This document shows, in pieces, positions 1-6,429 of a stretch of 49,158 bases of DNA; the first letter of the stretch is position 1; each line of letters starts with the position of its first letter. The position numbers were made by a program, and so were the translations under genes. Source of the stretch: Candidatus Thorarchaeota archaeon (GTDB lineage Archaea > Asgardarchaeota > Thorarchaeia > Thorarchaeales > Thorarchaeaceae); NCBI GenBank assembly GCA_016839605.1, contig JAEOTX010000096.1:1-49158 (forward strand), written 5' to 3'. Under the pieces are notes generated by a model. That model saw only the letters and a list, made by a program, of their open reading frames with translations, did not search any database and was not told where the DNA came from.

Positions 1-3
1 AGG

Positions 4-39
4 GATAGAAGGAGCGCGACCAGCGCCAGCTCCTTCATC
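4..39 (-). terminator. 3' hairpin downstream of ssb; short relative of the repeat at 612-713 and 1477-1606
   Basis: Minus strand GATGAAGGAGC-TGGCGCTGGTCGC-GCTCCTTCTATC forms a stem; it shares TGGTCGCGCTCCTTC with copy 2 and GAAGGAGCT with the vhuU helix arm. Confidence 0.5.
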
Positions 40-64
40 AAAACAATTCTGTGTTCGTCAAAGA

Positions 65-454
65 TTATCTTGGACGACTACCGTGATCTTCGGCAGACAT
101 GTCGACTTCCGTGTTGATTTCACCAATTGATTCTTCAGCTGAAGCAATCGAACCGAATTTACCTAGTTGAAGTCTTAGATTGCCCTTGAAGAGACCTGTG
201 TATCCATTCGAAAGGGTGTAAGATTCGCCTTCCTCTATTGTCTCGATGGTTTCATTCCAGATAGGCATTAGAACTATCCCTGTGGAATCGCCAACTTGGG
301 CATCTACTACTCGGTATGTCTCACCGTTCTTACGGGATTCAACCGATCTTTCATCACTTGTATTCATGACCTTGAAGGTAATGTTTACGCTTTTCATTCC
401 GGGCTTAAGCTCGGAAATAGTGGCCTCAACGGCCTCTGTCTTGTTGTCATACAT
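65..454 (-). CDS. ssb: Single-stranded DNA-binding protein (single OB-fold, archaeal SSB/RPA type)
   Basis: ISELKPGMKSVNITFKV...VGDSTG.V.MPIWN...GESYTLSNGYTGLFKGNLRLQLGKFGSI is the typical archaeal SSB OB-fold pattern. Confidence 0.85.
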   Translation of the reverse strand: MYDNKTEAVEATISELKPGMKSVNITFKVMNTSDERSVESRKNGETYRVVDAQVGDSTGIVLMPIWNETIETIEEGESYTLSNGYTGLFKGNLRLQLGKFGSIASAEESIGEINTEVDMSAEDHGSRPR

Positions 455-611
455 TGTATATCACTCGCTTTTGCGAATTCAGGTCATTCAAAACTAAGGT
501 AGTCCTCAGGTGGAAGTAAAGAAAGGTCGTTAATCCTCAATAGAACCAGTAAGAAGGTTTGCATAGTTGCTATGCCTGTGACTCGATGGCGTGTGAGTCT
601 GCTTATAGTGT

Positions 612-713
612 TATGCATAATACCGAATAAAGAGAAAGGATGGAAGGAGCGCGACCAACGCACTCTTGCGGTGTGTCACACCCAGCCCATTTCATTTGAG
701 GTCGTGCCTTCAT
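612..713 (-). repeat. Degenerate direct-repeat copy of the vhuU 3' SECIS element
   Basis: agagaaaggatggaaggagcgcgaccaacgcactcttgcggtgtgtcacacccagcccatttcatttgaggtcgtgccttcat aligns with the 1477-1581 copy; it overlaps the TGA stop of the nucleotidyltransferase gene. Confidence 0.85.
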
Positions 714-1276
714 TCTCGGTTCTTTATCTTGGCAGTAGATTCTTTCAAGAATCTCTTCCAATCATCAAGAATTTTCAACTTCTTGCACGTCGATTCGATA
801 TACGCAATATCAAGTTGTGGTTGTCTGCGAGAGAGAATGCCCAGCGCATCTCGAAGATCTTGTTCACCATGAAAAAGGATCTTGTTGATTAACGTGTCTT
901 CAGCTGTACCAAGTTTGATAGTTGTATTGAACAGCTCTATTGCAATTGCACGATCCAGAGTCATTCTGTCGAATTGGGAATTCACACCCTGAATGTCAAG
1001 CCTAAGGAGACTATCAGCAAAGAATATGGTGCTGTGTGATTTCTCTCTCAATGCGACCCTCAAATCCTCAACATTTGCATCAAACCCTTTCGAGTTAAGG
1101 AATTCGACGAAACCAGGAATCTCATCATCATTGCTTTGAATTATCAAATCAATATCTACTGTAGTCCGAGGAACACCGTGATACATCACTGCAACACCTC
1201 CTACCACAACGTAATCAATTTCACTTTCATTTAGATAAGAACATAATATTCGCAGAATCTCCGGGAACTCTTCCAT
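710..1276 (-). CDS. Nucleotidyltransferase family protein (DUF6036/MenT/AbiEii-like toxin candidate)
   Basis: YVVVGGVAVMYHGVPRTTVDIDL (GG...R.T.D.D NTase motif), EDTLINK and QDLRDA; ATG at 1276 preferred over GTG at 1288. Confidence 0.8.
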   Translation of the reverse strand: MEEFPEILRILCSYLNESEIDYVVVGGVAVMYHGVPRTTVDIDLIIQSNDDEIPGFVEFLNSKGFDANVEDLRVALREKSHSTIFFADSLLRLDIQGVNSQFDRMTLDRAIAIELFNTTIKLGTAEDTLINKILFHGEQDLRDALGILSRRQPQLDIAYIESTCKKLKILDDWKRFLKESTAKIKNRE

Positions 1277-1277
1277 C

Positions 1278-1430
1278 TCAGTTCCCACCTGCTACACGTA
1301 AAGCTAAAGCTGAGAGTTTTAAACCCATTAATAAAGTTTCAAGTCCTGTGAATCGTCTTGCCTGCATTGCAGTTCTAATCTGATCATGGTCTCTACGAAG
1401 CTTCACTTGTTCTGCAATGGAGCTTGTCAT
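1278..1430 (-). CDS. Small (50 aa) helical protein, putative antitoxin partner of the nucleotidyltransferase; absent from the ORF track
   Basis: Read by hand: MTSSIAEQVKLRRDHDQIRTAMQARRFTGLETLLMGLKLSALALRVAGGN*; its TGA lies 1 nt before the NTase ATG, a typical two-gene module layout. Confidence 0.6.
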   Translation of the reverse strand: MTSSIAEQVKLRRDHDQIRTAMQARRFTGLETLLMGLKLSALALRVAGGN

Positions 1431-1506
1431 TCTTTTCTCTCATTTGTGGTATATCTACTTCGCTCATATATTCTACTATGCAAAATTCGGAGAAAAGAGA
1501 AAGGAT

Positions 1507-1606
1507 GGAAGGAGGTGCGACCAACGCACCCTTGCGGGGTGTGTCAGACCCGGCCCGTTTCGTTTACGGCCGTGCCTTCATCCGCCGCCGGTCACTAGCT
1601 CCTTCC
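1507..1606 (-). promoter_or_regulatory. Eukaryote/Asgard-type SECIS element of vhuU
   Basis: Minus strand AUGAA-GGCACGGCCGU-AAACGAA-ACGGGCCGGGUC-UGAC: kink-turn core, 11-nt helix II arm, AAA apical loop; closed by GUGACCGGCG/CGUUGGUCGC and GGAAGGAG/CUCCUUCC helices. Confidence 0.85.
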
Positions 1607-1742
1607 TGACTATCTCGCGACACTCCCCGTCATCGTCTTCCTCAACGACGACGAAATGAGCGCCGCATGATAGTCAGCAGTCGTAACACCGCACAACCAT
1701 CTCGATGAGGTTGAGCAGTCCTTCCGGTATTTCTTCCGTCAT
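1578..1742 (-). CDS. vhuU: Selenocysteine-containing [NiFeSe]-hydrogenase subunit VhuU (split C-terminus of the large subunit); Sec UGA at 1676-1674
   Basis: Translated by hand: MTEEIPEGLLNLIEMVVRCYDC-U-LSCGAHFVVVEEDDDGECREIVRKELVTGGG*. It matches the VhuU/L2 motif EMVxRxYDP(C/U)xSCxxH, directly follows vhuA (which lacks L2), and has a SECIS downstream. Confidence 0.93.
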
Positions 1743-1753
1743 GTTTTACACCA

Positions 1754-3070
1754 TTATCTTTTGACCATAGGCTCAGGAAGAGTTAGACTTTCATGAGCCT
1801 TGTCCTCAAATATTTGTTTGGCTGCGACCATGAGAGACTTCTCTATGCCCGCAATGTTGTTGTTAGTAGCAACGACTAGGTTTGCCTTGGTGAGCATCCC
1901 CTTGTCATCTGAGATGTAGTTGTGTAGCAGAATGCCTCTGGGGGCTTCCACGATGCCTACTCCATCTCCAGCTTTGGGTTCGACATCTGAGAGTTTCACA
2001 TCTGTACTGCAAATGTCTGGATCTTTGAGCAGTGTTGCACACCATTCAAACGCTTGTACCAACTCCACAATTCGTGCATAGTGGTAAGCGAATGTATGAT
2101 GAGAGGGTCGACCTACTAGCTCACGCATCTCCGTGAGAGCTGCATCAGCCAAAGGTGTAGCCATCTTCTCATTGACATTGCATCTTGCCAATGTGTTTGC
2201 TCTCCAGACACCCTCTGGATAGCCAGCAGGTTTGTAGTACATATGAGTAGCATAGCTATGCTTTGCTACATGTTCACCGTAGTACTTGGTGTAGTCCTTC
2301 GGTTCAAAGTCTGCAACTATTTTGCCATCTGGCTCTTGGACACGAACTGTGCCGTCGTAGATATCAAGCACACCTTCGTTTGAGAGTCCAATGTAATATG
2401 TCGGGACCACAGCGACTTTTGTGATAACATCCAGATAGTCTGTTACGACCTTCTTTGCCAAGTCCACTGTGTTTAGCGTCAGTTGCTGAATCTCCTCAAG
2501 TCGCCCTATGAAGAAATCGCGGTCTTCTTCCTTCAATGAAGTAAGCATACCTCCAGGAATTCCAGTAGTTGGATGTACAGCCTTCGCACCAATGACTCTG
2601 ATTAACTCCTGACCAAACTCCATCATCTTGATGGCCTGCACAGCCACGTCAGGTAGGTCTCTTAACACAGCTGCGACATTTCTATCAGCAGGATTTGCAA
2701 AAGGCCCGTAAACGAAGTCAGGTGCAGCTAGAGCGTAGAAGTGGATGGCGTGTGAGGAATACTGCTTCGCCTCAATCATCAGACGTCTCAGCTTGATCGC
2801 TGCAGGAGGTGGAGTCACATCCCAGGCTGCCTCAACAGCCTTGATGGATGCCAGATGATGAGGGATCGGACAGATACCACAAATCCTTGGAGCGATCCTT
2901 GGAGCTTCCTCCATGGGACGCCCTTCAAGGAATTTCTCAAAGAACCTTGTGCTATTCACATTGAACTGCACATCTTTGACCTTACCGTCCTTGCCCAATT
3001 TGATTGTCAATGAGCCATGACCCTCTAAGCGGGTCACAGGATCAACACGAATTACTTTCTCTTCACTCAT
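1754..3070 (-). CDS. vhuA: F420-non-reducing [NiFe(Se)] hydrogenase large subunit (group 3c), lacking the C-terminal L2 motif
   Basis: DPVTRLEGHG, RFFEKFLEGR, L1 RICGICPIPH, EAPRGILLH, ANLVVATNNN; no DPCxxC at the C-terminus. Confidence 0.93.
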   Translation of the reverse strand: MSEEKVIRVDPVTRLEGHGSLTIKLGKDGKVKDVQFNVNSTRFFEKFLEGRPMEEAPRIAPRICGICPIPHHLASIKAVEAAWDVTPPPAAIKLRRLMIEAKQYSSHAIHFYALAAPDFVYGPFANPADRNVAAVLRDLPDVAVQAIKMMEFGQELIRVIGAKAVHPTTGIPGGMLTSLKEEDRDFFIGRLEEIQQLTLNTVDLAKKVVTDYLDVITKVAVVPTYYIGLSNEGVLDIYDGTVRVQEPDGKIVADFEPKDYTKYYGEHVAKHSYATHMYYKPAGYPEGVWRANTLARCNVNEKMATPLADAALTEMRELVGRPSHHTFAYHYARIVELVQAFEWCATLLKDPDICSTDVKLSDVEPKAGDGVGIVEAPRGILLHNYISDDKGMLTKANLVVATNNNIAGIEKSLMVAAKQIFEDKAHESLTLPEPMVKR

Positions 3071-3990
3071 TTCTCCTTCGCCTCCTCACGCTTGATTCTC
3101 ATTCGCCCAAGGTGACTAGTAGGATAGTCGAATCTCCAGAAGGTCCCGAGCGGGTCCTTCACCTCTTCCACTATCTTTTCGGGTTCCATCGGTGCATATG
3201 ATCCCAGCATCGAGATAGATGCTGCACCATGGTCCTGTGTAATCGGGGGTGGTGGACCAAAGCAGCCACGACAAGTGGAACCCATATTCACACACTGACC
3301 TTCACATAGACCCCAAGTTGAAGAGCCCACACAGATGTAACCTTGTTCGAGTAAGCATCTGTCTGGGTCCGCAATCCCTTGATATGGTCGCAGAACCTCT
3401 TCGATGGGTGTGTCCTTCTTTTCTCGGTCGCAGTAGTGACACACGGTGTGTGGTGGTAAATCAATAGGTTGACCTGATAGAAGTGCACTCACTGCTGTGT
3501 AGATAAGATCAGGGGTCGGTGGACAGCCGGGGAGGTAGATGTCAATGTCTACAAAGTCCGAGTTTGGTTTTACTACGGATGCAATTCCTGGAAGATTCTC
3601 ACTTGGAACCTCACCGCCTTCCACCGTCTTGTTGTTTCTGAATTTGACATCATAGCACTCTTCAATATCAGAGAAGTTAGCCAGTCCTGGAATACCTCCA
3701 AAACACGAGCATGAACCGAAAGCAATCAGAATCTGACACTTTTCACGCATCAGTTTTAGGAGATGAATATCCTCCTCGGTCCTGGCCATTCCTTCAAAGA
3801 AGCCTACCACTATCGACTTGTCCTCATAGCTCTCTAGGTGATGGAGCTTGAAGTCAGCCACAGCCTGCCAGTACTTTATCTCAATTGCTGGTAGTACTTC
3901 TGCGAGTCGGAGATGTATATCCACCAGACTCTGGAAGCAACCCCAGCAGCTTGACCCCTGGCCCATTGCGACTGGAACTGGATCAGCCAT
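3067..3990 (-). CDS. vhuG: F420-non-reducing hydrogenase small subunit (MvhG/VhuG)
   Basis: CWGC, FGSCSCFGGIPGLAN, LPGCPP, CHYC...CLLEQGYICVG...CEGQC...CRGCFGP. Confidence 0.92.
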   Translation of the reverse strand: MADPVPVAMGQGSSCWGCFQSLVDIHLRLAEVLPAIEIKYWQAVADFKLHHLESYEDKSIVVGFFEGMARTEEDIHLLKLMREKCQILIAFGSCSCFGGIPGLANFSDIEECYDVKFRNNKTVEGGEVPSENLPGIASVVKPNSDFVDIDIYLPGCPPTPDLIYTAVSALLSGQPIDLPPHTVCHYCDREKKDTPIEEVLRPYQGIADPDRCLLEQGYICVGSSTWGLCEGQCVNMGSTCRGCFGPPPPITQDHGAASISMLGSYAPMEPEKIVEEVKDPLGTFWRFDYPTSHLGRMRIKREEAKEK

Positions 3991-3992
3991 CT

Positions 3993-4226
3993 TTAGACCT
4001 CCCTCAGTTTGAAGACGAGCTCATGATGCTCCTCTCCGGCGATCTCTACATCGCCCCATCGAAGAAGGCCCAGAAGATTCCACATGAGCATCTTCTTGTC
4101 CATCTCTGTCTTTTCACCGATTACGCTGACACTGGCTGGGCCTTCCTTGAGCGAATCAAGGATGGATTTTCGCTGCCGTGTCACATCAGCATAGTTCTGG
4201 TCAAAGTACGTCGTGAACTCTGTCAT
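3993..4226 (-). CDS. Small winged-helix-like protein in the mvh operon
   Basis: ILDSLKEGPASVSVIGEKTEMDKKMLMWNLLGLLRWGDVEIAG wHTH pattern; paralog of 14716..15063; ATGA overlap with the mvhD stop (ORF track start 4232). Confidence 0.65.
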   Translation of the reverse strand: MTEFTTYFDQNYADVTRQRKSILDSLKEGPASVSVIGEKTEMDKKMLMWNLLGLLRWGDVEIAGEEHHELVFKLREV

Positions 4227-4663
4227 ACCCACGACCTCCCTATTGGACCAACTTCTTTCACTTGTTCTATCAACTTCGTCACTCCGTCTGCGAATATCTG
4301 GGCCTCAGAGGCACTCGCCCATTGAAGTCGAATTCGCCTCGGATCGATACCAGCTTGCTTGACTGCCTCCGCCATCACTGCCCATCTTGCTCGTAGTTTG
4401 AGATTGCCTGATGTGTAATGACAGTCTCCAGGATGACATCCAGATACCAGCACGCCATCAGCGCCTTGATCTAGGGCACTCAGGATGAACTCTGTGTCTA
4501 TCCGGCCTGTGCAGTTCACCCGGATGATACGAGCGTTTGGCGGATATTGGATCCTGCTCGTTCCAGCCAAGTCGGCTCCGGCATAGGAACACCAATTGCA
4601 GCAAAATGCGACAATTCGAGGTTCCCATTCAGAATCGGTTTTTGCTTTTGATGAAGTAGTCAT
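4223..4663 (-). CDS. mvhD: Hydrogenase iron-sulfur subunit MvhD ([2Fe-2S])
   Basis: PRIVAFCCNWCSYAGADLAG, VNCTGR, GADGVLVSGCHPGDCHY, WASASEA. Confidence 0.95.
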   Translation of the reverse strand: MTTSSKAKTDSEWEPRIVAFCCNWCSYAGADLAGTSRIQYPPNARIIRVNCTGRIDTEFILSALDQGADGVLVSGCHPGDCHYTSGNLKLRARWAVMAEAVKQAGIDPRRIRLQWASASEAQIFADGVTKLIEQVKEVGPIGRSWV

Positions 4664-6429
4664 TAGGCAGCACCTCCATCAGGCTCCATGGGCGCACATA
4701 GATACGCCTCGACCATGGCCAAAATCTGGTCATCAGTCGAGTGTAGCATCATAATGGCAGAACTCGGGCACGCGGCCGCGCAAGTTCCACAGCCATGGCA
4801 CTTAGCCTCGGTGACGAGTGCAACAGGTGGGTCTTGTGACTCATCCATCGCAATCGCATTATACGGACATGCTGAGATGCAAGTGTGGCATGAGGAACAA
4901 AGCTCTGGAATCACTCGTGATACCGTAGCCTCAATCTCCACTTCTCCGCGAGCCATCAAGCCCACTGCCTTTGCAGCGGCTCCGCTAGCGTCAGTTATCG
5001 ACTCCGCAGCACCCTTGGCCGCCTGAGCTCCTCCAGCAATCATCACACCTGCAGTGTGAGTGGTGAGTGGAGCAAGCTTCACGTGCTCAGGGTTGAAGAA
5101 TCCGTCAGGGCTCCTTGTGAGGCTGAATACTTTGGAAACATCCTCAGATCCCTCAGGTGGAACCATTGCTGAAGCTAGAACCAGCAGGTCTGGCTTTAAG
5201 ATAAGATTGTCATCTGAGAAGACATCATGCCAGTGGAGCACAAGCTCCCCATCCACAATCTCCGGTCGTGGTTTCTTCTCTGGTGGAAACTTACTGTAGA
5301 TGACATGCTTGGTTCTGGCCTCTCTCTGAATCTCTTCATGGCCCTTTCCATAAGTCCTGAGGTCTTCGTACAGTATGATAATCTCATCAGCATTGTCCTT
5401 GAGCTCGCCAGCACTCTTTGCAATAGCTGTACAGCAAACTCTAGAGCAGTGCTCATGTCCCTTAACGCCAGATTCACGTGAAGCAACGCAGCCAATATAG
5501 GCGATAGTCTTTGGCGGTTTGCCATTGCTGGGTCTCAAGACATCTCCTTTGAGGCGCATCTCTTCTAGCTCTGCTAAGGTAATAATATCCGGATGGTCTC
5601 CATAGGAGTAGTAGCCATGTGGTTTGAATGGTTGAATCCCTGTCGCCACAATAATCGTGCCCACTCTATGTGTTTTGTCCGCATCATTCGTGGTCACTGT
5701 GACATCGAAATTGCCAATGTAGCCATCAAGATCAGTCACTGTCGATTCTGTCATGACCTCAATCTTGTCGTGAGTTTTGACCCGCTTGATGAGTTGGTCA
5801 GCCAATGTGTTTCCCTGCTCACCTGTTGGATAGACACTTGCTAGCTTCGCGATCTGTCCTCCGAGTTTCTTCTCTCGTTCAACAAGAATTGCATTAAAGC
5901 CGCGGTCTCCAATATCTAGAGCTGCACGCATTCCTGTGACGCCGCCCCCAACAATGAGAGCCGTTGGCTCGACTTCGACACTCTTGACTGGCAAAGACTC
6001 TAGAAGCGCAGCACGAGCAACAGACATCCTAACAAGGTCCTTTGCCTTCTCTGTTGCTTCCTCAGGCTGGCGCATATGGCACCAAGAAACATGTTCTCGG
6101 AGATTGACTTGATCAAAGAGATAGCGGTTTACATCCGCTTCTTCAACTACTCTTCTGAACGTAGGTTCATGCATCCTCGGACTGCAACTAGCAACAACTA
6201 CTCGGTTCAAGCTATGCTCCTTTATGCTGTCCTTGATGAGTTGCTGACCTGAGTCTGCACACATGAACATCGTTGTGGTCGAGAACGCTACGTATGGTAG
6301 GGTCTCAGCCATCTTTGCTACGGCCTCTACATCAACAGTACCTGCGATATTGTGGCCGCACATGCAGACGAATACGCCAATCCTAGGAGCTTCGGCTGCA
6401 GTATCTGTTCCAGTTTCTGCTTCGGTCAC
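4663..6429 (-). CDS. hdrA: Heterodisulfide reductase subunit A-like flavoprotein, without the inserted central ferredoxin domain
   Basis: RIGVFVCMCGHNI, VVVASCSPRMHEPTF, NLREHVSWCH, GGGVTG, GCVASR...CSRVCC, C-terminal 2x[4Fe-4S]. Confidence 0.88.
   Translation of the reverse strand: MTEAETGTDTAAEAPRIGVFVCMCGHNIAGTVDVEAVAKMAETLPYVAFSTTTMFMCADSGQQLIKDSIKEHSLNRVVVASCSPRMHEPTFRRVVEEADVNRYLFDQVNLREHVSWCHMRQPEEATEKAKDLVRMSVARAALLESLPVKSVEVEPTALIVGGGVTGMRAALDIGDRGFNAILVEREKKLGGQIAKLASVYPTGEQGNTLADQLIKRVKTHDKIEVMTESTVTDLDGYIGNFDVTVTTNDADKTHRVGTIIVATGIQPFKPHGYYSYGDHPDIITLAELEEMRLKGDVLRPSNGKPPKTIAYIGCVASRESGVKGHEHCSRVCCTAIAKSAGELKDNADEIIILYEDLRTYGKGHEEIQREARTKHVIYSKFPPEKKPRPEIVDGELVLHWHDVFSDDNLILKPDLLVLASAMVPPEGSEDVSKVFSLTRSPDGFFNPEHVKLAPLTTHTAGVMIAGGAQAAKGAAESITDASGAAAKAVGLMARGEVEIEATVSRVIPELCSSCHTCISACPYNAIAMDESQDPPVALVTEAKCHGCGTCAAACPSSAIMMLHSTDDQILAMVEAYLCAPMEPDGGAA

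Follow-up and report, generated by a model that had tools for sequence, protein, structure and literature searches.

VhuU was described by Mariotti et al. in 2016 as one of five selenoprotein families of Lokiarchaeota, together with the lokiSECIS, an element composed of an AUGA, a 9-bp stem, an 11-nt A-rich loop and a GA/AA; in VhuU the AUGA doubles as the stop codon (PMC4989117). Asgard archaea are not known to have an SBP2 (PMC4989117). Huang et al. reported in 2024 that the vhuU family occurs in 68% of the Sec-using Asgard archaea, and that the SECIS elements of Thorarchaeial frhA/vhuU usually carry a loop starting with GUAAA or GGAAA and a lower stem of the form YGG_CYR (PMC11227280). The methanococcal VhuADGU complex is available as a cryo-EM structure from 2026 (PMC13518236).

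Here, a window of 49,158 nt (the whole stretch of DNA that was analysed, from a contig of a Candidatus Thorarchaeota archaeon) was examined. With high confidence, positions 1581–1742 of its minus strand are assigned to vhuU, a separate gene for the Sec-containing C-terminus of a [NiFeSe] hydrogenase large subunit, the enzyme being of group 3c (Mvh/Vhu-type, F420-non-reducing). The gene belongs to the same family and has the same architecture as VhuU of Loki- and Thorarchaeia with its lokiSECIS or type I eSECIS-like element (AUGA as stop, stem of ~9–10 bp, GUAAA loop), and it is another instance of published Asgard vhuU from which nothing essential differs. As Asgard VhuU, its SECIS type and the overlap of AUGA and stop codon were all published between 2016 and 2024, the finding as such is already known. 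Three details, namely a GCAA hairpin, a further hairpin that opens with the UGA, and the downstream SECIS copies (see below), go unmentioned in those parts of the published Asgard vhuU accounts that were available for comparison (PMC4989117, PMC11227280).

Compared to VhuU of Methanococcus (M. voltae, M. maripaludis VhuADGU; 9SFI chains g and M), the large subunit is divided at the same point as methanococcal VhuA/VhuU and the small peptide has the same U-x-x-C-x-x-H arrangement. Sec at the proximal Ni-ligand position, an extension after the His, and adjoining vhuA, vhuG and vhuD genes are likewise shared. The two differ in the motif, which is D-C-U here and D-P-U there, in the host, which is a non-methanogenic Asgard archaeon, and in the SECIS, which is eukaryote-like (AUGA/GA kink-turn type) here and of the GAA_A type in Methanococcus. 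MvhA of Methanothermococcus thermolithotrophicus (5ODC) is homologous from end to end to VhuA and VhuU taken together; it is unsplit and Sec-free, with DPCLSCATH, whereas the protein described here is split, with a predicted Sec. With the eukaryotic type I SECIS the element shares the AUGA…GA non-Watson–Crick quartet, helix II, an A-rich apical loop, helix I below and the 3′ UTR location; it differs in a shorter helix II, in its overlap with the stop and last codons, and in an extra side hairpin.

Split large subunit and hydrogenase gene cluster

The following genes were assigned:
1581–1742, minus strand: vhuU coding sequence, 54 codons, with stop TGA at 1578–1580 (from translation)
1674–1676, minus strand: UGA assigned to selenocysteine, codon 23 (from invariance and alignment to the MvhA Cys)
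1754–3070, minus strand: vhuA, [NiFe] hydrogenase large subunit, 438 aa (Pfam PF00374; best match NCBIfam VhuA NF041785, 481 bits)
3067–3990, minus strand: vhuG/mvhG, small subunit, 307 aa (Pfam PF01058; best match NCBIfam VhuG NF045875, 230 bits)
4223–4663, minus strand: mvhD/vhuD, delta subunit, 146 aa (Pfam PF02662, E 9e-52; NCBIfam VhuD, 128 bits)
4663–6429, minus strand: hdrA-like flavoprotein, 588 aa, with Fer4 and FAD domains (NCBIfam HdrA2 NF040770, 541 bits; HdrA, 351 bits)

VhuA keeps the N-terminal RICGICPIPH and is without the C-terminal DPCxxCxxH. Among solved structures it is nearest to the 418-aa VhuA 9sfi_g of the VhuADGU complex (E 6e-127, residues 7–421) and to MvhA (5odc, 9sw2). 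The initial annotation had described the subunit as ending before its C-terminal metal-binding motif, and this is borne out by the alignment to unsplit MvhA (5odc_F, 473 aa), of which VhuA spans residues 4–414 only. The small ORF spans residues 425–454 of the same chain and also aligns to the 27-residue VhuU chain 9sfi_M. It opens with an ATG at 1742, 11 nt past the TAA stop of vhuA, and reads …EMVVRCYDC-U-LSCGAH, followed by 25 more residues after His29. Standard decoding yields a 22-aa peptide only, and the program-made ORF list holds no ORF at this place; the earlier proposal of an unlisted ORF, starting 11 nt after the vhuA stop and with a UGA (1676–1674) at a Ni-ligand position, agrees with our coordinates and translation throughout. 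In alignments to 7t2r_D, 5odc_F, 9sw2_F and 9sfi_M, the UGA takes the place of the first Cys of DPCxxCxxH and is followed by xxCxxH. Its counterpart in MvhA is the first Cys of DPCLSCATH, and in 9sfi_M the X (Sec).

The best match of the small ORF is NCBIfam VhuU NF041786 (49.5 bits, below the equivalog cut-off of 70 bits). These equivalog cut-offs were set on Methanococcales, and all four Vhu subunits of the window score below them; the low VhuU score thus counts against strict equivalog naming, not against homology. A Pfam search with the 54-aa peptide gave no match, while the NCBIfam and PDB sequence searches did. In one relative (locus L037), a TAA occurs 12 codons past the vhuU UGA (…VVDE*), and the C-terminal codons and SECIS seen elsewhere follow beyond it; the extension may be truncated, or a frameshift or assembly error may be involved.

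The genes for VhuG, MvhD/VhuD and the HdrA-like protein lie directly upstream of vhuA-vhuU on the same strand, overlapping or nearly so. The assignment to group 3c, likewise put forward in the initial annotation, stands: VhuA is nearest to Vhu/Mvh, and vhuG, mvhD/vhuD and hdrA lie alongside as in Mvh/Vhu–Hdr operons. Both MvhD/VhuD, which has no in-frame UGA, and the HdrA-like protein are Cys forms. MvhD/VhuD scores higher against the C-terminal part of HdrA2 than against NCBIfam VhuD, and the matches of the HdrA-like protein to the HdrA2 and HdrA models are both below the cut-offs (541 vs 1100 bits). Between them, the 588-aa and 146-aa proteins (4223–6429, minus strand) correspond to the N- and C-terminal portions of HdrA2 model NF040770, which describes a fusion, and judging from these matches the pair looks like a split version of it.

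In analogy to Methanococcus Vhu, electrons would pass from VhuG via MvhD to the adjacent HdrA-type flavoprotein; this path, like the Sec insertion and cleavage steps proposed below, is modelled on established [NiFe(Se)] maturation and the methanococcal enzyme. Alternatively, vhuU may be genuine while the hydrogenase does not feed an Hdr-type bifurcating complex, the HdrA-like genes serving other electron transfer. Several of the adjacent HdrA-like genes are fused to GltD-like modules. Thorarchaeota are not methanogens, which speaks for such a separate role, as does the distance of the HdrA-like protein from the HdrA equivalog cut-offs noted above. Still, vhuG, vhuA and vhuU are contiguous and co-directional with mvhD and hdrA, as in the Mvh/Vhu–Hdr operons, and MvhD is the known adaptor to HdrA (5ODC; PMC13518236). 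A hydrogenase uncoupled from Hdr is therefore considered unlikely, albeit the most serious of the alternatives weighed here.

In Thorarchaeota relatives, a second VhuA paralogue group (loci L080–L088) is ~69% identical and also stops before the C-terminal motif (…LPDPMIK*). No vhuU lies directly downstream of its members.

Conservation of the UGA and the selenocysteine machinery

When 61 related genomes were searched in six frames, 43 gave a match to the vhuU peptide; ~38 of these loci have an in-frame TGA, and nearly all of those have exactly one. When public genomes were searched with VhuA as anchor, an adjacent Sec-containing vhuU was found at 69 of 80 loci, the titles of which name Thor-, Loki/Promethearchaeia, Hod-, Hermod-, Jord- and Freyarchaeota. 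Across the 83 distinct Asgard vhuU sequences the TGA column shows no variation (83/83), neither to another stop nor to a sense codon. In the same set, the per-column entropy at codon positions 1/2/3 sums to 8.6/2.6/20.8 bits ahead of the UGA (17 codons) and to 4.8/2.1/12.9 bits past it (10 codons); this third-position-biased variation on both sides indicates protein-coding selection on both sides of the UGA. Lack of coding-type conservation past the UGA had been set beforehand as one of two observations that would overturn the selenoprotein proposal; such conservation is present in ~100 related loci. In the window the UGA stands in a Cys-Sec context with CUA as the next codon, and the following codon starts with C in all 83 sequences.

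The Asp-Pro that precedes the Sec/Cys ligand in methanococcal VhuU and MvhA is absent here. A vicinal Cys-Sec (Y-D-C-U, 1674–1682, minus strand) replaces the canonical D-P-C/U, the form in methanogens and in ordinary [NiFe] enzymes, and is invariant in the 83 distinct Asgard sequences, in most of which the Cys of RCY ahead of D-C-U is present as well. As a matter of speculation, the vicinal pair could form a selenenylsulfide.

The source genome assembly consists of 259 contigs and is 80% complete. The initial annotation had named the Sec machinery as a check, and its absence from a complete genome as the other refuting observation; tRNA-Sec, EFSec, SepSecS, a PSTK-like gene and SelD were all found. 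EFSec/SelB (286 bits, above the cut-off), SepSecS (441 bits), tRNA-SeC (57 bits, anticodon UCA) and the PSTK-like kinase (125 bits, below the cut-off of 290) lie within 4.5 kb of each other on one contig, forming a Sec island (C181:700–5200; loci L001–L003 and L121). The SelD gene is located on a different contig (C192:23077–23883, L005) and contains one in-frame TGA, which makes SelD itself a selenoprotein. This form of SelD has been reported for Asgard archaea.

SECIS element and readings of the UGA

Downstream of the UGA, and partly within the last codons of the gene, the following element was delineated on the minus strand:
1515–1592, minus strand: eukaryote-like (Asgard type I) SECIS (from consensus fold, covariation and covariance model)
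1592–1587 pairing with 1525–1520, minus strand: helix I
1581–1578, minus strand: AUGA, the UGA of which is the vhuU stop codon
1577–1568 pairing with 1555–1546, minus strand: helix II, a GC-rich stem of 10 positions with one A·G
1567–1556, minus strand: apical loop of 12 nt, GUAAACGAAACG, starting with GUAAA
1545–1544, minus strand: GA
1539–1528, minus strand: small hairpin of GCAA type, 3′ of the GA and ahead of the closing strand of helix I

Given the position of its 5′ strand (1592–1587), helix I is formed by the last vhuU codons, which it joins to sequence ~55 nt downstream. The published type I eSECIS-like elements are defined by an upper stem of 7–15 bp with at most two mismatches and an apical loop of 8–20 nt with leading adenines; the AUGA … [G/A]A core, the stem, the loop and the position near the 3′ end of the gene all conform to this definition. 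In a three-helix consensus fold of 79 distinct sequences, all 17 pairs show compensatory changes. 93.5% of the cells are paired, vs 26–51% when the partner column is slid, and none of 500 shuffles reached the observed values. A covariance model built from this alignment scores the element of the window at 76.6 bits. Folded as a single sequence, the vhuU 3′ UTR is no better than its shuffles (z = −0.43), and the case for the SECIS consequently rests on comparative evidence. The single-sequence MFE structure, which placed the AUGA in a Watson–Crick helix, was discarded in favour of the comparative fold. A search of the window for more selenoprotein genes, by TGA read-through ORFs and a generic AUGA–stem–loop–GA scan, returned only the vhuU SECIS as convincing.

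By analogy with known Sec decoding, the 3′ SECIS would recruit EFSec·GTP·Sec-tRNASec, so that UGA-23 is decoded as Sec. The weak UGA-C context and the hairpin starting at the UGA (see below) may aid recoding.

The conservation of the UGA, the SECIS and the Sec genes bear jointly on two further readings. In the first, near-cognate or context-driven read-through at UGA-CUA inserts Cys, Trp or another standard residue, giving a [NiFe] enzyme at least under selenium limitation. In agreement with this idea, UGA-C is a leaky context, and C is the first letter of the next codon in every sequence. Yet the SECIS has a Sec-specific architecture, is tied to vhuU and upheld by compensatory changes, tRNA-Sec, EFSec, SepSecS and PSTK have been retained, and the Cys codons TGY, although just one mutation away, occur in 0 of the 83 sequences. 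Read-through by a standard residue is accordingly regarded as very improbable. Least credible of all is a true stop, with the ORF as a decaying remnant of a fused C-terminus and the hydrogenase inactive or served by another C-terminal donor: the bare 22-aa product of standard decoding and the VhuA paralogues of relatives without adjacent vhuU would fit it, but the third-position-biased conservation after a TGA that never changes in 83 sequences, a dedicated SECIS and a full Sec machinery leave it next to no room.

With the UGA taken as Sec, maturation may be outlined along the lines of other [NiFe(Se)] hydrogenases. A HycI-type endopeptidase would cleave the VhuU peptide after His29 once Ni is inserted. 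The mature VhuU of ~29 residues would then provide Sec23 and Cys26 as ligands, and VhuA two N-terminal Cys, to complete the Ni–Fe site. A HycI-type protease (PF01750) was not found in the source genome, the assembly of which is 80% complete; among family relatives, 33 of 36 encode such a protease.

UGA-adjacent hairpin, repeated SECIS units and downstream cassettes

Besides the SECIS, a second structured segment was noted within the coding sequence:
1606–1677, minus strand: long hairpin inside vhuU, starting at the UGA (MFE −50 kcal/mol, z = −8.1)

Compensatory pairs are found both in relatives that carry a 4-codon insertion and in short-form relatives. In a short-form example, a Gly/Ala replacement is matched by a synonymous change of a Gly codon. 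When long- and short-form vhuU were mixed, RNAalifold gave no intragenic hairpin, whereas the hairpin was recovered with the length classes taken apart. The hairpin is put forward as a candidate auxiliary element of recoding, which might resemble a Sec redefinition element or a SECIS of the bacterial type. The 4-codon insertion itself lies in the C-terminal extension (1620–1645, minus strand; EEDDDGECRE vs DEEGRE), occurs in the source genus and one other Thor lineage, and makes the hairpin longer.

Beyond the SECIS of vhuU, the window holds further copies of this unit:
710–1288 and 1278–1430: cassette 1, a DUF6036 nucleotidyltransferase gene (710–1288) and a 50-aa ORF (1278–1430), between vhuU and the decayed SECIS copy
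649–724, minus strand: decayed second SECIS copy, covariance model score only 26.4 bits, helices I–III with broken pairs

A repeat search of the window aligned 612–713 with 1477–1581 at 84–87% identity. The AUGA of the decayed copy coincides with the stop codon of the DUF6036 nucleotidyltransferase gene. That this copy serves the nucleotidyltransferase was considered and rejected, as the gene has no in-frame UGA and the helices are broken (26 bits). By eye, an internally deleted SECIS remnant can be made out at ~1–45. The copies thus bracket two cassettes, one with the 50-aa ORF and the DUF6036 nucleotidyltransferase gene, the other with a gene for an SSB-like OB-fold protein, and the source contig ends inside this cassette region (window 1–1592, minus strand).

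Units made up of the vhuU tail and the SECIS (~105–147 nt) flank variable cassettes of one to two genes both here (1–1592, minus strand) and in relatives (L131–L135). In about 10 of the 66 Thorarchaeota genomes with a match to the SECIS model, the unit occurs two or three times within a 5-kb stretch of a single contig, and in multi-copy genomes the repeat often takes in the last 11–19 vhuU codons. The genes between the copies vary by genome and include a DUF5615/DUF433 toxin–antitoxin pair, an alpha/beta hydrolase, an 806-aa protease-like protein and small membrane proteins. In two closely related genomes the order of two shared cassettes is reversed; the flanks on either side are identical, and the blocks themselves are 96% and 93% identical. 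No integrase-like gene stood out among ORFs of at least 75 aa in the 12–14 kb around the arrays of two relatives, with Pfam searches covering three of these ORFs. In a literature search for SECIS elements in connection with mobile elements or integration sites, no paper among the top full-text matches contained the word SECIS.

From this arrangement we infer that the cassette region looks like a recombination or attachment hot spot. Each cassette would bring along a vhuU tail and SECIS of its own, and on its arrival the SECIS in use by vhuU would be exchanged for the new one, which may be likened to genomic islands that restore the tRNA genes they target. The combined proposal, in which the 3′ end of vhuU and its SECIS are a hot spot of cassette recombination or attachment and the UGA-start hairpin is a second, so far undescribed recoding signal, is advanced tentatively, as a possibility that falls somewhat short of an even chance.

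In summary, the vhuU SECIS is one more example of the eukaryote-like SECIS elements of Asgard archaea. The SECIS-flanked cassettes, the UGA-adjacent hairpin and the vicinal Cys-Sec might be novel. As far as can be judged from the genome, vhuU points to a Thorarchaeon with a selenium-dependent, H2-oxidising enzyme. Ordinary gene callers would render this enzyme as a truncated and seemingly dead hydrogenase; including vhuU changes metabolic reconstructions of H2 use and of Hdr-type electron bifurcation.
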